From a virus (taxonomy: Duplodnaviria; Caudoviricetes): a stretch of 49,696 nt of DNA. Position 1 is the first letter of the stretch. Each line of letters begins with the position of its first letter. The notes under the pieces are model-generated. The model worked only from the letters and a program-made list of their open reading frames with translations, was not told the DNA's origin and searched no databases. The position numbers and the translations under genes were made by a program. Positions 8,375 through 18,644 of this stretch are shown piece by piece. Location: positions 1 to 49,696 of IMG/VR virus record IMGVR_UViG_3300037423_000165; one strand, given 5' to 3'.

Positions 8375-8536
8375 AAGACCTGAAGGGGAGGGGGAAAGGG
8401 GGTAGGGAAGACATAAGAATAATATAATAATAATAGTAGACAAAATAATCTAGAAGATTATAAGAAGAATAGTAAGAAGTAGAGTAACTACTAACATTCT
8501 TATAATTTACTACTATTTCTTCTACCTTATATATAC

Positions 8537-8565
8537 ATTATATCCATTTCCCGCGTGAATGTCAA
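8537..8565 (-). promoter_or_regulatory. Sigma70 consensus promoter for the packaging/structural arm
   Basis: TTGACA-17 nt-TATAAT on the minus strand in an AT-rich intergenic region. Confidence 0.85.
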
Positions 8566-8621
8566 GCATTTTTTTATAATTCTATCGATTTTGTGCATAT
8601 TTAGACGTATTCCGCCCTTGA

Positions 8622-8635
8622 GTGAGCAAGCTCAC
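8622..8635. repeat. GTSAGC-N2-3-GCTSAC mini-hairpin family; other copies at 10164, 11116, 12588, 15350, 26038, 35825
   Basis: Seven intergenic copies read directly (15350 has one terminal mismatch). Confidence 0.75.
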
Positions 8636-8654
8636 GGCCCCAAACGCTATCAGT

Positions 8655-8672
8655 TTGGCACTCAAGTGCCAA
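8655..8672. promoter_or_regulatory. 18-bp palindromic box TTGGCACTCAAGTGCCAA, copy 1
   Basis: Exact or near-exact copies at seven intergenic sites. Confidence 0.8.
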
Positions 8673-8905
8673 TATGACTATGCTAGTTTTGTATTTTTTT
8701 ATTCTCAGATGAGGTCGCTTTCTTCTCGCATAAAGTGTCATGATATCTCATGCCCCCCCCCTAACCAAATAGGCTCGTTCTGGGCAGCCGGGGGAGCCGG
8801 TATGGTTTGAGACGAACCGTGCATAAACAGCGATGAGTTGAGGAACGTAGGGCAGGACCATGCGTTGAGTTAGTTGAGGCATACTGTCTATCGTATGTCT
8901 CCGTT

Positions 8906-8923
8906 TTGGCACTCAAGTGCCAA
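8906..8923. promoter_or_regulatory. 18-bp palindromic box, copy 2
   Basis: Exact TTGGCACTCAAGTGCCAA. Confidence 0.8.
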
Positions 8924-9112
8924 TCTGCTGCGACGGACCCGCCGAGAGGCGATGCCATAGCAGGCTCTTTCAAACCGTGAACCCTAGCTAGAGTGAGGCA
9001 CTTCGCCTCACGACCTAGAGACCGGCCCGCAAGGACTGGAACGGGGAGGCTTGCAAGTGGAAGCAAGAAACCCGGACCGAGCCAAGGCGGAAACCCGGTA
9101 AAGGAGAATGAA

Positions 9113-9985
9113 ATGGCACAGAAGAACACAAATACGAACACTGTTGCGCAGAATGCCTCGCAGACGGCTTCAGAAGCCCCTCAGGAGGCAAATCCCGCAA
9201 TCAGGAACAATAACGACCTTTTCGCTCTTGTCCGCGCTACGGACGGCCAGAGCGTCCAGAACAAGGTCGCTTTCATGGGCGATATTCGTCAGAAGCTCGC
9301 TCAAGTCGCCGACGAAGCGAAAGCCAACGGCGAGCAGGCGAAAGAGACGGAGGGGCTTGCAGCGAGTGCCGCAACCCGGCTTTATATCGCCCGCATCAAC
9401 GGCACGATTACCGGCGACGAACTCACCAGCCTTCTCGGCGATACTTTCGGGTATAAGCCGAAACAGGACGGAACGCCCGGCAAAACCCCGGCAGGCGTCG
9501 GCGAAGCAATTCGCAAGCGGATCGTCAGGGCGGTTCAGGGATACGATTTCGTCCATGGTGCCGACGGCGGCCGCTTCTTCGAAACGATGGATGCGGATGC
9601 AGTCGCCCCGGTCATCTCGGCGATTGGTCGCGTCAAGAAGAACGAGAAAGGCGAGACTGTCTCGGACGGGATTTCCGTCTGGGATGCTTATATCAAGCTC
9701 GGTGATATCAAGTCGCAGGGCACGGTTCGCCTTCCCTTCGCCTTCGACGCGAAGAAAATCCTGAGCCTCACCGAAAGCCTTTCGGAGGCCGGGGCTCGTG
9801 GTAAGCTCTTGTCGAACCCGTCGCTATTGAAGGCTTATGCCGGATTGGCGGACCAACTGACGCTTCTTCGTCAGATCGGCGACGACGAGCTTGCGGAAGT
9901 AAAAGCGGCTCTTGGCGTCGATGACGGTGAGAGCGAGCCGGAGGCGGACACAGAAACCGTCGAAGGCGAACAGATGGCGGCTTAA
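9113..9985 (+). CDS. Hypothetical early protein (290 aa)
   Basis: AAGGAG RBS before ATG 9113; GC-rich codon usage; first gene of the plus arm. Confidence 0.8.
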   Translation: MAQKNTNTNTVAQNASQTASEAPQEANPAIRNNNDLFALVRATDGQSVQNKVAFMGDIRQKLAQVADEAKANGEQAKETEGLAASAATRLYIARINGTITGDELTSLLGDTFGYKPKQDGTPGKTPAGVGEAIRKRIVRAVQGYDFVHGADGGRFFETMDADAVAPVISAIGRVKKNEKGETVSDGISVWDAYIKLGDIKSQGTVRLPFAFDAKKILSLTESLSEAGARGKLLSNPSLLKAYAGLADQLTLLRQIGDDELAEVKAALGVDDGESEPEADTETVEGEQMAA

Positions 9986-10137
9986 GCCGTCGAGACAGCT
10001 AGGGTTCACTCTTGCAAGCCTCATGGGGAGGTAAGTGAGGGTGAACCCTAATGGTCCCGCAAGAGAAGCCGGAAACGGTAACTCTTGCGGGGCTTAGTCG
10101 TATCTTAATTCTGCGTGGAACAAAAGGGGAACGAGGA

Positions 10138-10155
10138 TTGGCACTTGAGTGCCCA
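10138..10155. promoter_or_regulatory. 18-bp palindromic box, copy 3
   Basis: TTGGCACTTGAGTGCCCA, reverse orientation, one mismatch. Confidence 0.75.
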
Positions 10156-10196
10156 AAACTATAGTCAGCTTTGCTGACGTAACTATAATCGGAATA

Positions 10197-10266
10197 ACTA
10201 GATTTAGGCGGGCGGTGGCCGGTTGAAGCCTCCACTAAAACCCGTCACCGTCCACCTAAGTCTAGT
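10197..10266 (+). ncRNA. Candidate hairpin RNA with anti-RBS loop
   Basis: 28-bp stem (23 Watson-Crick, 3 G-U, 2 mismatches) with loop GAAGCCTCCACTAA; TATAAT at 10184-10189 just upstream. Confidence 0.6.
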
Positions 10267-10295
10267 CCTAGTCCTATAATCAAGTGGAGGTGATT

Positions 10296-10466
10296 ATGAG
10301 AGTTACGGCAAAACAATGGTTGAAGCCCAACAATGGGCATCGCCGTTTCATCCTACCTATTCCTAGAAAGTGTTGGAGGTGCAACGGCACCGGCACGATG
10401 CTGTGGGTGGATTGGTCGCATGGCGTCAACAAACCCATGCCATGCACGGTTTGCAAGAAGAATTAG
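10296..10466 (+). CDS. Small zinc-finger protein
   Basis: CWRCNGTG...CTVC; GGAGGTG RBS. Confidence 0.65.
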   Translation: MRVTAKQWLKPNNGHRRFILPIPRKCWRCNGTGTMLWVDWSHGVNKPMPCTVCKKN

Positions 10467-10477
10467 TGGAGGCTATA

Positions 10478-11116
10478 ATGGGAAAGAAGGGTGGAGGTTC
10501 TTTCTATCGTCCTGTGATGTCGTCATCGGCAGGGATGTTCGCCAAGAAGGGCAATCCTTGGGTAACAAGGAGGGAGGGCGAACGTGACTTCAATCGACAA
10601 GTCGAAGTCGAGAACCCCGACATGGATGCCGATAGGCAGAGGAATGCCCGAATAGAGAAGCAACCGAAGGAGGTTCAGGACCGATTGAAGCGCCTAGACG
10701 TCAAAATGACTATGCGTGAAGCAATCGAGACTGAACGCTCTATCCGGATGGATAGCTATTTCGCCCAGAAGATAGCTAAGCCGAAAGCCGGTGAATGGCC
10801 TAAGGCTGGCAAAGACTTCACAGTTGAGCGTCGCCCGTCGCTGCAACAGCGGTTGGCGAATATCGCGATCAGGACTCGGCGAGAAGTCAATGCACTCGAA
10901 AATTCAAAGAGGACGACGATTGTCTCTGGGCAATCTTTATCTTCTCTAGAGGCTAGGGTTGACGGAACTGCGAAGATAGCTTGTCCTCGCGGTTGTGGGT
11001 ATACCACCCATGACAGCAGAAATATCAGCAAGCATCTTCAGAAATTCAGAAACTCTTGCTGCACTCATACTCGTTGCAACTGCGATGACTGTAAGAGAGC
11101 TCGTAACGAGATTTAG
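10478..11116 (+). CDS. Hypothetical protein with C-terminal Cys/His cluster
   Basis: GGAGG RBS before ATG 10478; CPRGC...H...CCTH..CNCDDC. Confidence 0.7.
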   Translation: MGKKGGGSFYRPVMSSSAGMFAKKGNPWVTRREGERDFNRQVEVENPDMDADRQRNARIEKQPKEVQDRLKRLDVKMTMREAIETERSIRMDSYFAQKIAKPKAGEWPKAGKDFTVERRPSLQQRLANIAIRTRREVNALENSKRTTIVSGQSLSSLEARVDGTAKIACPRGCGYTTHDSRNISKHLQKFRNSCCTHTRCNCDDCKRARNEI

Positions 11117-11149
11117 TGAGCAAAGCTCACACAAATAGTGGAGGCTGTG

Positions 11150-11278
11150 ATGAAACATTACATCGTCGTTCCTAAAAAACTTCTCAAAATAGCCTTGGAA
11201 TGGGAATACCAAAAAGGGCTATTCTTCGATATAGTCGCAACCCATGACAATTTCGGACGTCTGACTCTGTGGGGTTAA
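11150..11278 (+). CDS. Small hypothetical protein (42 aa)
   Basis: TAGTGGAGG RBS; MKHYIVVPKK...LTLWG fills the intergenic gap. Confidence 0.5.
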   Translation: MKHYIVVPKKLLKIALEWEYQKGLFFDIVATHDNFGRLTLWG

Positions 11279-11290
11279 CCATAGGAGGAA

Positions 11291-11797
11291 ATGATGGAAC
11301 TTGAAACTCTAAAGCTCTTATTGGATCGTATCGATGAGTGTGAATATGCAACTCTCGACAGCACTACGTATCCAATACCGGGGCTTCGCAAAGTCACTAC
11401 GGGGACTCGCGTCCTCTTGTTCACAAATAAGAACGGAGTCTCTGGTTATGGCGAAATGGTCAAGCGTCGTCTCATCGAAGCTGGCAAGGACCCCCGTAAC
11501 TTTAGCCTCGGCGATCTTCCTTGGGGCGAGAGAATTCCAAATTCTCCGCTTATCATTTGTCGCGGCAATCATTACCTACAGACAATTGTCCTCGAACCCG
11601 GACAGTCTGTTGGATACGCAGGAAACCGGGAGGTCAATCTTGAAGACTTCGTTACTCCTAGGCGAACAAATCAAGGACTCCCGAAGGGCGATGAAGTCAT
11701 TGTCGCGACGTATCGGCTCGATCACATCGACCGCATCGCGCTTATGGGCGAGGTTCTAGTCGGCAATGCCGTAGGGTTGACGCCTCTAGGGACTTAA
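11291..11797 (+). CDS. Hypothetical phage protein
   Basis: 168 aa ORF with AGGAGG RBS. Confidence 0.75.
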   Translation: MMELETLKLLLDRIDECEYATLDSTTYPIPGLRKVTTGTRVLLFTNKNGVSGYGEMVKRRLIEAGKDPRNFSLGDLPWGERIPNSPLIICRGNHYLQTIVLEPGQSVGYAGNREVNLEDFVTPRRTNQGLPKGDEVIVATYRLDHIDRIALMGEVLVGNAVGLTPLGT

Positions 11798-11806
11798 TTA
11801 CTTAAT

Positions 11807-11824
11807 TTGGCACTTGAGTGCCAA
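11807..11824. promoter_or_regulatory. 18-bp palindromic box, copy 4
   Basis: Exact TTGGCACTTGAGTGCCAA abutting the RBS of the next gene. Confidence 0.8.
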
Positions 11825-11834
11825 GGGAGGTTTT

Positions 11835-12290
11835 GTGGAGAAAGTTCATATCGGGAAGTTCTTTGTGTGGACTAAGGACGGCCGTAGGCCGCGATATGCC
11901 CATGTAACCTATGCCTCGGCCTTGAAAGAGGCCAAGAGGCTTGCAGCATTGAACCCCGGAAAGAGGTTTATTGTTCAAGAGTTCCACGATAAAGTCTTCG
12001 TGGATGTGGAGACGGCGCCTGCCACTGATGGAGAAGTGGCGCTAACGATGGAGAAAGTCATGAAGAAAACTCTTTGGGCCGGTGTCGTAAACGGGCAGAT
12101 CGGGTTCTTCTCTCAGAACCCCGACGGGAACGTCGAAGGACTTCAGGCAAGCCGGAAGTTCTACGTTGAGAACAACACTCTCACCGACGACCAAGGCTCG
12201 ATCCTCGACAACACCGCTCACGGCGGCGGTCAGAACACGACCGACATCGCTCATCAGACCGCAAATAAGGTGTCACAGCCGACGAGTTAA
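11835..12290 (+). CDS. Hypothetical protein; possible internal in-frame start at ATG 12060
   Basis: GGGAGG before GTG 11835; second RBS GATGGAGA before ATG 12060. Confidence 0.6.
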   Translation: MEKVHIGKFFVWTKDGRRPRYAHVTYASALKEAKRLAALNPGKRFIVQEFHDKVFVDVETAPATDGEVALTMEKVMKKTLWAGVVNGQIGFFSQNPDGNVEGLQASRKFYVENNTLTDDQGSILDNTAHGGGQNTTDIAHQTANKVSQPTS

Positions 12291-12375
12291 TTCGGCTGCC
12301 TATCGGTAGAAAGAAACCCGTATTCTCAAACACAGGAGAGGTTTATGAAGTAATTCATTTGCTCTTCTCGCTACA

Positions 12376-12420
12376 GACCCCCTTCGGAGCCTAAAAACTT
12401 CGGAGGGGGTTTTATTTTAA
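12376..12420 (+). terminator. Rho-independent terminator
   Basis: ACCCCCTTCGGAG / CTTCGGAGGGGGT stem followed by a T-rich tract. Confidence 0.85.
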
Positions 12421-12620
12421 GTAGAACGCGATTACACTATTCAGATGGGTGCATAGTCCAACAGGGTCTGGTGATGAAACTAGACGTTAGCTACATCTAT
12501 GCATCCTTCTGAGTAGTGCTTGGGTTACAAAACGGCATGGGCTGCCCCTCTCTTCGCGAGAACCTGCCGTGGCGCTACTCATATCAAGTCAGCTATGCTG
12601 ACGTATTAGTGGAGGAACTT

Positions 12621-12887
12621 ATGTTCAGGCTGTTTTCACGTCAATCACTTCCTATCCATACTCCTGCCACTCAATGGCATGTTCCTTTGGATTGGCGTAA
12701 CAGCTTAACTAAGCCACCTTATTCCATAACAACCTTCTGGGAAGACCTGCCTAGGCATTGCTATGTCTGTGGTTCAGAGACTTCTCATGAGGAACTAGAC
12801 CCGATGTATATCGAAGGCGAGTTTCAGTATATGAAAAGGGTTCAGTTCTGTCCAAAAGGTTGTGGCTTCACAGTTTGGATTGCATAA
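12621..12887 (+). CDS. Hypothetical zinc-ribbon protein
   Basis: GGAGG RBS; CYVC...CPKGC. Confidence 0.65.
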   Translation: MFRLFSRQSLPIHTPATQWHVPLDWRNSLTKPPYSITTFWEDLPRHCYVCGSETSHEELDPMYIEGEFQYMKRVQFCPKGCGFTVWIA

Positions 12888-13005
12888 ACCTTTCGGGCGT
12901 CCCATTAGACAATTTGTCGGGAGCCTTGCTAGCAGCTACCTCCTCCCCGTGCTAGCTCAGGCTTAAAAGACCCGTAATTTCAAGGAGGAGACTTGGGAGG
13001 ATGTA

Positions 13006-13518
13006 ATGTTCAAATTCTTCAACAAACCTCGCGTTTCTCCACTTGAGAAGTGGGCCAACCATAACGCCAAGAAGGCATCTGCCGATGATCTAATCGCGGG
13101 TGCAATCATTGCTTCCTTCGCCAAGGACCACAAGCACTGGAAATTCATCGGCAATTTCAAGCAGGACCATTCTAGCAAACATTACTTCGCATCTACATCT
13201 CTCTCTCGTCAGATGGGCAATAAGAAGCACATCAAGATTGAGTTCTTGTTCAGACATATGGAGTATGAGGAGGGGCATCGCTACCGCGTTTTCGGCTGTG
13301 AAGTCAACGGTGTCAGGATTTCCGACAAAGCCTTCAAGGCTATTCTGACTGCTTGGCAGGGCATTCGAGAGAAGGTCAAGGCAGCCGAAGAAGTGGCAGA
13401 AAAAGCCAAGGCAGAGATGGAGGTCAACGAGACCAAGTGGAACCTTGCCGAAGAGCTTCTAGGCATGAAACGCAACGGACTCGGTGTGCTTATGCCGGTC
13501 AAGACGGCGGAGGAATAA
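13006..13518 (+). CDS. Hypothetical protein
   Basis: 170 aa ORF with GGGAGG RBS. Confidence 0.75.
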   Translation: MFKFFNKPRVSPLEKWANHNAKKASADDLIAGAIIASFAKDHKHWKFIGNFKQDHSSKHYFASTSLSRQMGNKKHIKIEFLFRHMEYEEGHRYRVFGCEVNGVRISDKAFKAILTAWQGIREKVKAAEEVAEKAKAEMEVNETKWNLAEELLGMKRNGLGVLMPVKTAEE

Positions 13519-13785
13519 ATGCTTGATCTAATCATACCTTTGTCAGTTCTTGGACTTGTCTCGTATCTTATAATTGGCGGAGTGACTCACGAATTATCTC
13601 GTGGCCGCTTCGGCAGATACGATGATGATGAGCACATTATCTGTGCTATGTTCTGGCCGATATATCTGCTCTATCTGACGTTCTGCGTCGCCGCAGTCTT
13701 TGCGATTGCTGCTTTCTTCCGACTGATTAGCCGGTTAATCAGGAAGGCTCTTCGTGACGGCGGTAGTGTTAATATCGTAAAATAG
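13519..13785 (+). CDS. Small membrane protein
   Basis: Two hydrophobic segments and an FWP motif. Confidence 0.65.
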   Translation: MLDLIIPLSVLGLVSYLIIGGVTHELSRGRFGRYDDDEHIICAMFWPIYLLYLTFCVAAVFAIAAFFRLISRLIRKALRDGGSVNIVK

Positions 13786-13795
13786 GGAGGTCAAT

Positions 13796-14026
13796 GTGTT
13801 CTTCATTTACTGTTTTCTGGCCTTCCTGGGCTATGTCTTCTCCTGCGTGATCGCAGATAAGGTCATGAGGTGGATGGGGTTCGAAAATCCTGAACTTGTG
13901 CCGGTGTTCTGGCCACTTGCATTGGTGGTCGCAGTTGCAATTGTCCTTCCTATTTGTGCTATGCTTTGGTTGGTCAATGATCTGCCGAAGAAACTGAAGA
14001 AATCGGACGCGAGTATCGTCAAATGA
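13796..14026 (+). CDS. Small membrane protein
   Basis: Two hydrophobic segments, FWP motif, GGGAGG RBS. Confidence 0.65.
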   Translation: MFFIYCFLAFLGYVFSCVIADKVMRWMGFENPELVPVFWPLALVVAVAIVLPICAMLWLVNDLPKKLKKSDASIVK

Positions 14027-14289
14027 ACACCATCGACCGCATAAATCGGCTCATCGGCCAGACGCCACTAGGCTCTGTAAGGGTTGGCGCGGGGTCGAGG
14101 CTTCATTCGATCCTCAATTCTATCGATAGCGCCATTGGCGCGGATACCGAATGGGTTAGAAAGGACAGTTGCCGCTGCTCGGCGCACATCAACGGAGCCT
14201 GCGGAAATAGGCGCGCCGTTGGCGCTCGTGTCAAAATGCTCGAAGAAATTACAGCTCTGAACGACTTAAAGCAGCAATTTGCTGTTTAG
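14023..14289 (+). CDS. Hypothetical protein
   Basis: ATGA overlap with the upstream stop. Confidence 0.6.
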   Translation: MNTIDRINRLIGQTPLGSVRVGAGSRLHSILNSIDSAIGADTEWVRKDSCRCSAHINGACGNRRAVGARVKMLEEITALNDLKQQFAV

Positions 14290-14299
14290 AGTTCTGTAA

Positions 14300-14317
14300 T
14301 TGGCACTCAAGTGCCAA
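14300..14317. promoter_or_regulatory. 18-bp palindromic box, copy 5
   Basis: Exact copy upstream of the gamma-glutamylcyclotransferase gene. Confidence 0.8.
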
Positions 14318-14334
14318 AGTGTGAAGAGGTAGCC

Positions 14335-14781
14335 ATGCTTAAGAACGATCTACTTTTCGTTTATGGCACTTTGCGGGCAGGGGAGCGGATGGATATCAGA
14401 AACCAGAAGCTAAACGCCGAGGTGACATTCATTAGCAAAGACAAGATTAACGGGAATATGTATCACCTAGGGACATTTCCCGGAGTAAAAGAAGTTAACA
14501 GTCGCTTCGACCCCAATGATCCGATTGTCATTGGGGAGGTATTTAAGATACGCGGTTCTTCTATCATCGCCATCTTGGATGCCTACGAAGGCTACAATGC
14601 AGACAATCCATCACTCGGTCTTTATGACAGATGCCAAGTGATGACCGAGCGAGGGAGGTTAGTTTGGGTTTACACCTTCAACGGCATGGTGTTGCCAGAG
14701 CAACGCATCGAGAGCGGAGATTGGTGCCGCAACAGAGAGACCTTGGGCTCTGGCCGCAGCCTGTCCGCGTGGGGCCGGTAA
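14335..14781 (+). CDS. Gamma-glutamylcyclotransferase (AIG2-like)
   Basis: LFVYGTLR, GEVF, LDAYEG, Y-x-R, WVY and I-x-SGDW motifs. Confidence 0.92.
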   Translation: MLKNDLLFVYGTLRAGERMDIRNQKLNAEVTFISKDKINGNMYHLGTFPGVKEVNSRFDPNDPIVIGEVFKIRGSSIIAILDAYEGYNADNPSLGLYDRCQVMTERGRLVWVYTFNGMVLPEQRIESGDWCRNRETLGSGRSLSAWGR

Positions 14782-14941
14782 GACCGGAGATAACGCAGAA
14801 GCTCATAAAAGAGCTGCTCGAGGATAGGATGCTTCATGCGTCGTTACTTAGCAAGTCTGACGACCCGAAGATGTCACACGCTGCTGCTATGGTGTTCTTC
14901 ACCCTTCAAGCACTGCAAAAAGAACTGACGAGGAGGTTACG

Positions 14942-15346
14942 GTGAGGATTTCATTACATGGTGGAGATTGCTGCGGCATCAAGCATATTCATAATCTTGG
15001 ATACTATCCTCACGTAGGAATTGCATCAAGACGGGCTCTTCCAGTGAATACGTCGTTCGGTCAGAAGGCGGTGCGATCCGTCAATGACATGCGACACGCT
15101 AACAAGAAGGCTGATTGCGATTTCTACAATCTCTCTGCTCCTGTTGAGACTTACGAGAAACGTTTCAAGCGTTTCGTTTCCTTCATCAAGGAGCATCGAG
15201 AGCATGGAATTATTGAAGTCACCATCAATATCTTTTCACAAAAAGCATGGAAACCTGTTCTAAAGGAACAGGGGTTTAAGACGGTGTCTTCTGGAAATAA
15301 CTCTAACACCGGTAATATAATCGAAATCTGGCATCTGGTTTATTAA
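14942..15346 (+). CDS. Hypothetical protein (CC motif; GNAT-like C-terminus)
   Basis: GAGGAGG RBS before GTG; DCCG...WKPVLKEQGF...NNS. Confidence 0.65.
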   Translation: MRISLHGGDCCGIKHIHNLGYYPHVGIASRRALPVNTSFGQKAVRSVNDMRHANKKADCDFYNLSAPVETYEKRFKRFVSFIKEHREHGIIEVTINIFSQKAWKPVLKEQGFKTVSSGNNSNTGNIIEIWHLVY

Positions 15347-15378
15347 GGCGTGAGCGAAGCTCAGTTTAGGGAGGTTGT

Positions 15379-15639
15379 ATGGCTACTAAGAAAACAGTTA
15401 CACCGAAGAAAAGAATGCCGCCGAAGATAGTTATCTGTGACGAGCAAGGGCATATGATTGCAAAGGGTGTTTCTGAACAAATGGCTCTCGAAGCTGCTGC
15501 TAAATTGGTTCAACCCCATCATAGTAATGGGCATGGAAGTGGATATCCATTCGTCGGTATCTATCAACTTGTGAGCGTCGTTCGCCGGAAGACAGCGCCG
15601 GTAGAAATCGAAGAAATTTCATGCTGTAGGGAGAAGTAA
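15379..15639 (+). CDS. Hypothetical protein
   Basis: GGGAGG RBS, 86 aa. Confidence 0.65.
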   Translation: MATKKTVTPKKRMPPKIVICDEQGHMIAKGVSEQMALEAAAKLVQPHHSNGHGSGYPFVGIYQLVSVVRRKTAPVEIEEISCCREK

Positions 15640-15640
15640 G

Positions 15641-16420
15641 ATGGAAGTATTACGTTTTGGAAGCACAATTCCGGGGGGTTACTGGGGCTGTTGCGCCGGT
15701 GATATCATCCAGAACTGCAAAGTCGATCCCGATGCACAAGCGAGCATCTCACTCGTCGATGGTGACGGCGGCGTCTTCATGCAGAAGTTTCTCGGAAAGA
15801 CATTCCGGGAGATTTTCGAGAGCCGTCTTCGTATCGGGACATTCTCGACACGGGACATGCCTAACCATTTCTTCCTTGTCGTCCTCGAAGCCAATCAGAT
15901 TTCGGGCGGCAATGGCGCGAAGTGGCTGGCTATCCTCAAGGAACATGGCTTCGAGTTCATCAGAACGGTCAATAACTCCGTCTGGAACAAGAACAACTAT
16001 GTCTTCGGCCTGTTCCGCAACACCGGCCCGAACGCCGTCAAGGACCAGTTCACGCCGCCGCAGGCGTGGCTCGATCTTCCGAGCAACGGCAAGAAGGAAC
16101 TTTATGAGTTCCTTTCGACCGCTGACCGCAAGAGCCTGACAGAAAACTACGCCAAGGTGGATCAGAAGGTCTGGGACAAGGTCGGTCCGGCGAAGCTCTA
16201 TTCACAGCAGGAGCTCGAAGAAGCAGGCGTTCCTATCACGCTCGCTGCGATAAGGACTCCGTTCCCGCCGCAGGGACCGACTGCCCGTGCCAAGGCTATC
16301 GAGCAATTTCAGAAGGGCGCCGGAGAAGGCAAGCAGCCGAATACCCACAACACCGGCACTACCGGCGAGGTCATGCCGAAGTCCAAGGTGACGGCAACTC
16401 CGCCTGCCACCAAGGCATAA
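15641..16420 (+). CDS. Hypothetical protein (CC motif; GNAT-like segment)
   Basis: 259 aa with strong codon bias; GCCA...WLAILKEHGF...NNS. Confidence 0.75.
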   Translation: MEVLRFGSTIPGGYWGCCAGDIIQNCKVDPDAQASISLVDGDGGVFMQKFLGKTFREIFESRLRIGTFSTRDMPNHFFLVVLEANQISGGNGAKWLAILKEHGFEFIRTVNNSVWNKNNYVFGLFRNTGPNAVKDQFTPPQAWLDLPSNGKKELYEFLSTADRKSLTENYAKVDQKVWDKVGPAKLYSQQELEEAGVPITLAAIRTPFPPQGPTARAKAIEQFQKGAGEGKQPNTHNTGTTGEVMPKSKVTATPPATKA

Positions 16421-17200
16421 GAGCACGCAGGGTCGCGCCCTGCTATTTTAGTGCTTTGGAGGATGGCAAAGGCAGTAGCCAAGTAGGGCTAATTACCCTC
16501 GCGGCAAAACCGGATAAAGCCTGACAGAAAGAAAATGAGCACCGAGCGGGTGCAAGGCCCGCACAGTTTTCAGTTTCGGGGGTAGCGACGGCGGGGTAAG
16601 GTGCCTGTCCGCAGCCCAAATTTCGGCAAGCAAGTTACAGACTGATGTAACCTGAGTCTGACTAGTGCTCGCTACCTCCGAATTTCTTTTCAGATAAACT
16701 AGCCAGACCCCGAGGCCGCCTTCTAAGAGAAGAGGGTTCGAGTCCCTCTCGCCTCTGAGCCACCTTCGAACCGGGCTTCATCTAGCCCTGTGGTATCAAT
16801 TGAAGTGTCTGGCAATGCACTGCCCTGACAAACTGACGAGGTCGCACCGTAGGCGGATAAGTCAGCGCGTCTGGTAGATAAGTCATCCGGCCTTCACCGG
16901 CCCGCGCCCCTGCTGACTTCGCAAGGCGTCATAGTTCCCGATTTCTCTCGAAAGCCCTTTGTCACCTAGCAAGTGACGCACACAGGGGTCCAAGATTGTT
17001 TGTCGGATTGTGTCTATGACACGAGTTTCATGCTCTCCGCATGATTTCGTAGTAGGGAAAGGTAACCGGCAGAGGTGTTCGCCGTAGTAAGCGACGGAAT
17101 GTCTGGCTAGTTCATCCGCCCGTCTATACGGCGGGCTATGTGTGGGGGGCAAGGCTCTCCATCGGCTACGTCCCCCACACCCCCTCACTCTTGATGGAGA
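16421..17200 (+). ncRNA. Candidate large structured non-coding RNA(s)
   Basis: No credible ORF; long-range helices 16575-16588/16669-16682 and 16693-16708/17101-17116; many internal hairpins; tRNA-like T-arm at 16731-16749. Confidence 0.6.
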
Positions 17201-17206
17201 AGAGTT

Positions 17207-17431
17207 ATGGCAGGATATGTCACAAAATGGATACCCCCCTCCACTATCGATGACTTCATGTATGAGGTCCAGTGGAACCTCTGGGCGGGGGAGAAAGAAC
17301 GTGCGAGGCGTCAAATTCTCTGGATAATGGATCGATACTTAGGAGACGACAATGAAGAAGCCCCCGTCAGCAAAGGCCAAGGCCGCGAAGGCGAAAAGGG
17401 AGAAAATCACAGGGAATGTCACATCGGGTGA
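17207..17431 (+). CDS. Hypothetical protein
   Basis: GATGGAGA RBS; overlaps the next ORF. Confidence 0.5.
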   Translation: MAGYVTKWIPPSTIDDFMYEVQWNLWAGEKERARRQILWIMDRYLGDDNEEAPVSKGQGREGEKGENHRECHIG

Positions 17432-18644
17432 CGTCCGTGAACGGATCGAAGAGAGTTACGACAGAACATGGAAGCGCGATGGCCCCGGTGACCTGATGGA
17501 AGCATCGTATCCGGGCAATAAGTCTATCCATGATTTTCTGACGGCGGAGGAAGCTCGGGCTCAAGAGGAGAAAATCCTCGGGAGACGGCCTGCCTGCCTC
17601 GATGCAGTCCGAGTTCGCTCGGACGCCGAATTGGACGACGATGTCCCAGATTTCCTTCATACGGCAGCTAAGGCAGGGCCGCCTAGCTTCCCGTCGGATA
17701 CTCCTGTTCTCGATCATCTTGGTCGAACTCCAAAGGAAAGAAAGGAACGCAAAATAATGGATGCAATTGCGCTAGGTGAGAAAGTTCACCCGGCATCCAC
17801 TAACGCCCTCGTCGTCGGCGGCAAAACAATCGATCTTAACAAGCGGGTAATAACGCTGATGAAGGACCACGATCTACAATACCCCGATCTATACATGGCG
17901 GTCTACGTAGCAGGAGACTGGGCCGTTCCAGATGATGAGGCCCGCTTTGCACGACTGTTCTCTCGTTGTGGCTGCTACAAGGCAGACACCGTTGAAGAAG
18001 CAGACTTGGTCGTATTTGGCGGTGGCAGCGACGTCGAACCTTCACTATACGGCGAGGACAACGCCAATATGCATGAGTCGGTCTATTTCAGTAAGGACCG
18101 CGATAATGCAGACATGAAGATTTACACCAAGGCGCTGGAATTAGGCATTCCGATGATGGGCGTATGTCGCGGAGCACAGTTCCTTCACGTCATGAACGGT
18201 GGCAAACTCTATCAGGACGTCAACGGGCACAATGGTGCCCATAAGGCATTCTGTCTGCGCGAGAAGATGCTCATTGAGAATGTCTCATCGGTTCATCATC
18301 AACAGTGCATGTTCAACAAGGAGATGGAAGTCTTGATGACGACTTCTACCGTCTGCACTACCCGCCATATCGACAAGGATAAAACGGACAAGAGACCACG
18401 GCTTGACGTCGAGGCATTCTTCTATCGCGACACCGGCTGCTTTGGCGTCCAAGGACATCCAGAATACGCCAATTACAACAGGTTCTCTGTGTGGTGCATG
18501 GAGACCGTCAGCAATCTATTCCTGACTTCGCCGGACTTTACGTGGGAAGGAAAACGCCTGCGAATGACAAAGGAAGCCCGTGATGCCAAGGCGATTGCCG
18601 CAGCATATATCGAAAACGCTTACAATCAGACCAAGGAGGTATAA
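17352..18644 (+). CDS. Class I glutamine amidotransferase / peptidase C26-like protein
   Basis: FGGGSDV-x-P..YGE, nucleophile elbow GVCRGAQ, SVHHQ, GVQGHPE triad; start uncertain. Confidence 0.9.
   Translation: MKKPPSAKAKAAKAKREKITGNVTSGDVRERIEESYDRTWKRDGPGDLMEASYPGNKSIHDFLTAEEARAQEEKILGRRPACLDAVRVRSDAELDDDVPDFLHTAAKAGPPSFPSDTPVLDHLGRTPKERKERKIMDAIALGEKVHPASTNALVVGGKTIDLNKRVITLMKDHDLQYPDLYMAVYVAGDWAVPDDEARFARLFSRCGCYKADTVEEADLVVFGGGSDVEPSLYGEDNANMHESVYFSKDRDNADMKIYTKALELGIPMMGVCRGAQFLHVMNGGKLYQDVNGHNGAHKAFCLREKMLIENVSSVHHQQCMFNKEMEVLMTTSTVCTTRHIDKDKTDKRPRLDVEAFFYRDTGCFGVQGHPEYANYNRFSVWCMETVSNLFLTSPDFTWEGKRLRMTKEARDAKAIAAAYIENAYNQTKEV

Follow-up and report, generated by a model that had tools for sequence, protein, structure and literature searches.

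What is the function of an RNA hairpin whose loop is complementary to the ribosome-binding sites (RBSs) of the genes that follow it? The question is raised by the early region of IMGVR_UViG_3300037423_000165, an IMG/VR virus record (Duplodnaviria; Caudoviricetes) that was analysed over its full length of 49,696 nucleotides and is referred to here as the window. The window is the circular 49.7-kb genome, with a 129-nt end repeat, of an uncultured soil phage, a podovirus whose gene content includes a P22-like portal, a terminase, a T7-like primase/helicase, Pol A and an amidoligase cluster. Near the start of its plus-strand early arm lies a long stem-loop, HP1, and a first-pass annotation made from the letters alone had proposed that such stem-loop RNAs address sets of phage genes by their RBS signature. 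HP1 is a conserved leader stem with an RBS-complementary loop: the stem, the loop, the complementary RBS motifs (tags), the joint change of loop and tags among relatives and the compensatory changes within the stem can all be observed directly. That HP1 would be a processed hairpin RNA which represses the tagged early genes in trans, by pairing with their RBSs, is a further step to which we give, from sequence evidence, an even chance.

HP1 and the tagged ribosome-binding sites

The stem of HP1 (coordinates in Table 1) is paired at 26 of its 28 positions, through 23 Watson-Crick and three G-U pairs (10203, 10212 and 10218), with a C.A mismatch at 10209/10254 and a C.C mismatch at 10220/10243; the hairpin and the three G-U pairs of the first-pass annotation thus stand, but the stem is not a perfect one of 28 bp. 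The minimum free energy is -44 kcal/mol on the plus strand (z -7.65, with none of 200 shuffled sequences folding equally well) versus -39.9 kcal/mol on the minus strand. Spanning about two helical turns, the stem has the size of an RNase III substrate, and it stands just 5' of the RBS of an early gene, 16 nt upstream of the tag at 10283.

Complements of the loop measuring 12, 11, 10 and 8 nt are present, as had been claimed, at 10463, 11136, 12606 and 10283, each of them before a start codon, and the four plus-strand copies of AGTGGAGG in the genome are all located at these tagged RBSs. At all four sites the duplex with the loop is predicted to be stronger than that with the generic 16S tail (-16.4 to -21.4 versus -9.3 to -14.7 kcal/mol in the window). 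A duplex scan with the loop over both strands gave a divided result: the sites at 10463 and 11136 are the top two non-self matches, but that at 12606 ranks only eleventh and that at 10283 falls outside the 14 shown. The first tagged RBS is itself predicted to lie in the 8-nt loop of a small hairpin of its own (10276-10298), which would make a loop-loop contact with HP1 possible.

Joint change of loop and tag among relatives

Protein and pattern scans yielded a clade of seven contigs with a common early gene order, namely the window, L001, L191, G001, G003, L243 and L291 (G002 duplicates G003, and the two are counted once). Every relative in the clade has a long stem 3' of a palindromic repeat and 5' of the first small gene, and similar stems are found in more distant members of the family. 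The HP1 stems of the clade pair almost end to end and differ by many two-sided changes, seven of them within 24 tabulated positions between the window and L291; the central C.A mismatch is kept in four of six tabulated stems, G001 having C.C in its place and G003 none. In six of the seven contigs the loop contains the complement of the contig's own RBS motif: CCUCCAC pairs with GUGGAGG in the window and in L001, where five RBSs carry GTGGAGG; AUUCCCC pairs with GGGGAAU in G003 and L243; UCCUUUCCC pairs with GGGAAAGGA in L191; and CCCCUCCAAAG pairs with CUUUGGAGGGG (a motif also written UUUGGAGGGG) in L291. The L291 case was a blind prediction, stated before the sequence was examined, and its loop matches the adjacent RBS over 11 nt.

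When matches of 7 nt or more are counted, the window loop finds partners in 4 of 17 RBS windows of its own genome and 5 of 17 in L001, whereas the 77 windows of the other five contigs contain a single match. For the G003/L243 loop there are matches in 3 of 19 and 4 of 18 RBS windows inside its lineage and in none of 74 elsewhere, and the L291 loop matches 4 of 11 of its own, with a maximum of 11 nt versus 7-8 nt elsewhere. Loop shuffling gives p values of 0.003 for the window, 0.00015 for L001, 0.026 for L191, 0.014 for G003 and 0.005 for L243; among 120 pairings of loops with adjacent RBSs over five lineages, G001 included, only two reach the observed sum. By the test that the first-pass annotation had itself named, loop and RBS thus covary for HP1 over four motif lineages, and for a further hairpin at 17140 (HP3) with respect to one small gene. 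The deep branches of the A3 tree are unresolved (14 of 23 open), and the independence of the lineages therefore rests on their motif differences and divergence. G003 and L243 are identical over 150 nt around HP1, with flanks 74-77% identical; we do not take this identity for a sign of selection, since coding sequence close by looks near-identical too, which suggests recombination.

For the wider family, 21 of 23 loci were scored, two having been dropped because no stem exceeded the threshold, and the stem chosen in L206 is not an HP1 homologue. The L224 loop, which ranked second, was set aside since its score comes from the palindrome. A stem-pattern scan of viral contigs proved too loose (124 matches in 120 loci, four with CCTCC, of which only L001 was relevant). 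HP1-like stems with C-rich loops occur in L206/L208, L209 and L212, without a specific own-RBS match of at least 7 nt in those that were scored (L209 was not); these loops may be generic anti-Shine-Dalgarno (anti-SD) forms.

Several observations weigh against an addressing role. Specific RBS matches among the 21 scored loci are confined to the window, L001, L191 and G003: all 16 scored loci outside the clade lack one, and G001 has the stem with no match (0 of 13). The loops of L001 and L191 match RBSs of other lineages too (up to 4/18-4/19 and 5/18, respectively) and are therefore partly generic, and the RBS windows themselves come from a rough gene caller. In L001, the closest relative, the RBS orthologous to that at 10463 pairs over 12 nt with the window loop and over only 7 with its own; since the 12-mer is kept there without a full partner, the suggestion that loop pairing holds the TTA and CT flanks of the RBS fails in that contig. 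The addressing system of the first-pass annotation is thus supported in part: it has covariation on its side and, on the other, G001 and most distant relatives, which carry the stem without a specific loop.

The same observations lend some weight to a reading in which the stem serves only as a signal for processing and stabilisation; the RBS repeat would mark genes for a protein or result from the shuffling of genes, and the loop match would have arisen as a by-product, for example of template-switch copying. The stem is family-wide and the specific loop is not, L001 retains RBS flanks without a loop partner, a second long stem in the window (12435) has no anti-RBS loop, and among Cluster K mycobacteriophages and EF phages there are RBS tags with no anti-tag loop to go with them. 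We nevertheless find this reading rather improbable: four lineages with different motifs have each kept the match, and one of these cases had been foreseen in a blind prediction; the matched sites are RBSs, separated from the loop by as much as 5 kb; and the HP3 loop CUCCAUC has been kept on a changed stem.

Of all the loop matches, that to the neighbouring RBS recurs most consistently, being present in six of the seven contigs and best or tied-best in L191 and L291, and this would also fit a local mechanism. A single RNase III nick would leave the hairpin tethered to the 5' end of the mRNA, where it would cover mainly the neighbouring RBS, and the distal tags would be copies of little weight in regulation; internal loops can restrict RNase III cleavage to one strand, according to the available text of PMC1540722. 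In the window, however, the neighbouring site has the weakest match, of 8 nt, the best sites being 225 and 900 nt away, and the covarying target of HP3 lies 4-5 kb upstream of that hairpin. We regard such a local gate as unlikely.

Other elements of the early region

Two further anti-RBS hairpins had been claimed, and both exist; the one at 17140 is specific and covarying, but the loop of the other, HP2 (claimed at 12928), is generic. Over the 15-18 kb of early region scanned per contig, the best match of the HP3 loop in the window is the RBS of the small gene at 12060, and the loop sequence CUCCAUC is kept in L001 although the stem has changed. L191 has a different HP3 loop, whose best complement, of 9 nt and in another register, is the RBS of the small gene at the corresponding position. 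Loop shuffling gives p values of 0.0005 in the window, 0.0009 in L191 and 0.0036 in L001 (8 nt). Here too there are points on the other side: no HP3-RBS match is present in G001, G003 or L243, the small-gene RBS is not the top match of the loop in L001, orthology of the targets is weak (25-37% identity between the window and L191/L291, E 0.001-0.01), and the L191 target was first picked by eye. The open reading frame (ORF) at 12060 begins internally and in frame within a 151-aa ORF at 11835 (11835-12290 in the window) and has an RBS of its own; in L191 and L291 the short gene stands alone.

The non-coding block that HP3 ends (16420-17207) shares about 71% identity with L001 over 16694-17407 and includes two elements that resemble tRNA T-arms, one near 16550 and the other near 16735. 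A pattern derived from the block matches exactly five clade contigs, those that cover the block, and it has no Rfam or ARAGORN match; possibly it is a new cluster of structured RNAs.

HP2 was compared in the window and L001 only. In the window, three strong RBSs match its loop over 8 nt, and in L001 no match of at least 7 nt falls at a called RBS among the matches listed. To judge from its sequence, the loop is a generic anti-SD element and not a private address, a further point against the first-pass annotation. The second long stem, at 12435, is retained in L001 with a different loop; because it has the build of HP1 without an anti-RBS loop, it suggests that such stems first served in processing and that the anti-RBS loop was added later.

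The sequence upstream of HP1 was also compared. The TATAAT claimed before the stem is present at 10184-10189, but such a sequence stands upstream of the hairpin in only one of six clade members examined, and for that reason we treat it as a candidate and do not count it as a demonstrated promoter. In all six clade members examined, the 260 nt that precede HP1 contain a GAAC-N7-GAAC box or its reverse, and L001 has five GAAC-N7-GAAC or GTTC-N7-GTTC boxes there. We take this to be the alphaproteobacterial LexA (SOS) box; if it is of that type, it hints at the host group and at SOS-linked control. Copies of the palindromic repeat are located at 8656, 8907, 10139, 11808, 14301, 21778 and 48887 in the window. 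The variant differs in each relative, with many copies in L191 and L291, and a lineage-specific palindrome precedes HP1 in five of six by script, an imperfect G001 copy having been noticed by eye.

Table 1. Positions in the window of HP1, the tagged RBSs and other features of the early region
Feature	Position	Strand	Remarks
GAAC-N7-GAAC box	10118..10132	+	2 in genome versus 1.93 expected, not enriched
Palindromic operator-like repeat, one of 7 copies	10138..10154	.	7 sites versus 0 expected in 100 shuffles
Candidate sigma-70-like promoter ending in TATAAT	10162..10189	+	not conserved
HP1, long leader stem, RNase III-substrate-like	10197..10266	+	arms 10197-10224/10239-10266, central C.A mismatch
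HP1 loop	10225..10238	+	CCUCCA core fully unpaired in prediction
Tagged RBS 1, 8 nt	10283..10290	+	56-aa ORF starting 10296
Tagged RBS 2, 12 nt	10463..10474	+	212-aa ORF starting 10478
Tagged RBS 3, 11 nt	11136..11146	+	42-aa ORF starting 11150
Conserved early gene	11294..11797	+	432 homologues; model mean pLDDT 85.6
RBS of 76-aa ORF at 12060	12046..12054	+	9-nt complement of HP3 loop
Second long stem, same build as HP1	12435..12518	+	central T.T mismatch, loop not anti-RBS
Tagged RBS 4, 10 nt	12606..12615	+	88-aa ORF starting 12621
HP2 hairpin	12920..12965	+	generic anti-SD loop with CCUCCUCCC; stem also in L001
HP3 hairpin	17140..17180	+	ends 790-nt non-coding block; loop CUCCAUC

The conserved early gene at 11294 encodes a protein whose best fold match is the PafBC WYL domain (Z 5.3, root-mean-square deviation 2.9, 75 residues aligned), with Hfq at Z 4.7 and all matches below 8; the protein, modelled with confidence, weakly resembles Sm/WYL/Hfq barrels, and an RNA chaperone is a possible lead and no more. 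The resemblance bears on a protective or activating reading of the pairing, in which the loop would protect the tagged RBSs of the phage against a nuclease that cuts SD sequences, or would deliver them to ribosomes, for instance together with such a Sm/WYL-like protein. This reading would also suit the weak generic SD pairing of the tags in L191, G003 and L243 (-5.9 to -8.1 kcal/mol). We hold it to be very improbable, given that covering of the SD sequence normally represses (as in the discussion of cuckoo RNAs and RNAIII in the available text of PMC4615179), that the Sm/Hfq-like fold match lies below Z 8, and that no nuclease candidate is seen among the early genes.

Some other elements were noticed. 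The first early gene is followed by a hairpin whose 3' arm has a duplicate in a motif upstream of the gene (8977-8985, 10001-10009 and 10041-10049 in the window); with L182, L191, L200, L243, L291 and L174 the motif is present in all seven clade loci, and it changes together with the hairpin, which suggests an alternative long-range pairing that would enclose the gene. In four clade members an RBS with a mini-ORF of two or three codons (MK, MKK, MRR) immediately precedes a terminator-like hairpin, at 12335-12353 in the window, L182:8702, L200:7040 and L243:7037. Long tandem runs of a 6-nt unit (TCTAGG/TCTTGG/TCTGGG) occupy the early region of the distant relatives L208, L209, L212 and L251. 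A short conserved intergenic element ending near AAACTGC is found in G003 and L243 (L006 ~5140-5080, minus strand; L243 7370-7425); it is structured-RNA-like and has no Rfam match.

Database searches place the window apart from described phages. No named phage matches the early-region DNA or the 15641 protein, and the portal is about 35% identical to its best matches. PHROGs names no integrase or repressor in the window, and over 17 early ORFs Pfam names only a GGACT gene. At gathering score Rfam has no match, cuckoo and c4-type RNAs included, in the window or in seven related loci (only sub-threshold matches for 8400-18000); ARAGORN reports no genes in the window, and an ESM Atlas search gave no usable match. 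The near-identical sequencing runs among those listed are soil and rhizosphere DNA, with no RNA dataset among the seven runs listed; the DNA contigs compared contain no HP1 variants, and three further runs do not cover the region.

Known systems and the proposed mechanism

The closest parallel to the tags is provided by the Start Associated Sequence (SAS) repeats, which occur at RBSs of Cluster K mycobacteriophages and for which Pope et al. (PMC3203893, as far as its available text goes) left open an RNA or a protein partner. Like SAS in Cluster K and EF Microbacterium phages (PMC3203893, PMC7302621, PMC11373665), the window tags are an oriented, repeated motif at the RBS of non-structural genes that extends beyond 16S pairing; the function of SAS is stated as unknown in the accessible parts of all three papers. 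SAS differs in being a 13-mer of unrelated sequence in 11-19 copies, compared with four tags of 8-12 nt in the window, where the Cluster K consensus has one match at two mismatches versus 1.18 expected. As regards an upstream inverted-repeat promoter element like ESAS, one of the seven palindrome copies of the genome lies before HP1, but there is not one before each tagged gene.

One reversed SAS copy was noted in four K1 phages (PMC3203893, available text). In Anaya, Angelica and Adephagia we find this copy at the tip of a long hairpin, as its terminal loop of 10 nt; in Adephagia it is located between genes 92 and 93, the gap in which late transcription appears to start according to the accessible part of PMC11373665; the words "hairpin" and "non-coding" do not occur in that paper. 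The K1 loop sits in a structured, covarying leader (L268:34871, L269:33635, L285:1683). The Adephagia 92-93 region has matches in 150 records, and of 13 that were aligned, chosen among the 60 listed with a preference for divergent records, six have the exact loop, three a degenerate C/U loop and four none. SAS is unchanged in all three checked of the seven K phages with a degenerate or absent loop; Pixie, Pharb and TM4 have no anti-SAS loop in the parts compared (the left ends of TM4 and Pixie fall outside), and AnnaSerena has ten SAS copies and no such loop in the part compared. The unchanged SAS and the AnnaSerena case again count against a loop that reads the tag. The tag/anti-tag layout therefore recurs in an unrelated family, but the loop is dispensable there: the tag is fixed, the loop varies, and the two do not covary as they do in the window clade.

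The separate parts of the arrangement are already known: RNase III leader stems, small RNAs (sRNAs) with anti-SD loops, phage antisense RNAs and SAS repeats. The HP1 stem resembles the RNase III sites of T7 early mRNA (R1.1 type; PMC1540722, PMC8708148, both in part), where an interrupted two-turn stem stands just upstream of an early RBS; two helical turns with an internal interruption are the usual build of RNase III substrates in the available text of PMC1540722, and the T7 early leaders fold like HP1. The T7 stems, folded here, have loops of 3-5 nt, whereas the loop of HP1 is large and covaries with the tags, and cleavage of HP1 is inferred. A C-rich anti-SD motif in a hairpin loop is shared with the cuckoo/CcsR sRNAs of Alphaproteobacteria and the UCCC loops of RNAIII (PMC4615179, available text). 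The HP2 loop has CCUCCUCCC in common with cuckoo RNAs, but the HP1 core CCUCCAC falls outside their motif; cuckoo RNAs consist of two to four adjacent hairpins with a fixed generic motif (same source), the window of single hairpins kilobases apart, and HP1, unlike them, has a single long stem and a motif that differs from phage to phage in step with the tags of each. The c4 (P1/P7), sar and SviR RNAs likewise pair with their own phage or satellite mRNAs near starts (PMC8201110, PMC12197685, bioRxiv 2022.04.08.487710); they control one operon or use ordinary seeds, and the accessible parts of these reports describe no repeated lineage-specific RBS tag. The first-pass annotation knew of no description of the arrangement, and a literature search, with most subscription papers and supplements outside its scope, found none either. 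What appears to be new is the combination, in which lineage-specific RBS tags would be read by a covarying loop.

Across the clade the linker from stem to RBS measures 7-16 nt and the stems about 21-30 bp. Because the linker is so short, we infer from helix geometry that an intact stem cannot reach the neighbouring RBS in cis, which would exclude a pseudoknot of that kind. The build of the stem, the short linker and duplexes predicted to be stronger than those with the 16S tail are the reasons for which we favour a processed hairpin acting in trans, ranking it before the tethered local gate, the by-product and, last, the protective role. Under the favoured mechanism, host RNase III would cut HP1 close to its central mismatch, in the manner of T7 early mRNA, and a stable hairpin piece would accumulate while the early operon is transcribed. 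The piece would then occlude the tagged RBSs and block ribosome loading, resulting in delayed negative feedback on the earliest genes, and HP3 would act likewise on one small gene 5 kb upstream.

It is conceivable, although we regard it as somewhat doubtful, that unrelated phages have repeatedly evolved a private tag in the RBSs of a set of early genes together with an anti-tag in a leader hairpin, one hairpin per tag, such that later transcription silences sets of genes; the reversed SAS in the K1 late leader would then be the RNA partner left open since 2011. The idea can be tested although the phage of the window is uncultured, since Adephagia has the same layout and can be grown on M. smegmatis, and RNA-seq data for it are published. 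A tag and its anti-tag would make a compact tool for the co-regulation of genes. If the proposed mechanism is true, it would give these phages an early-to-late translational shut-off that needs no repressor protein, and it would provide a function for the repeated phage RBS motifs that papers from 2011 to 2024 have left unexplained.

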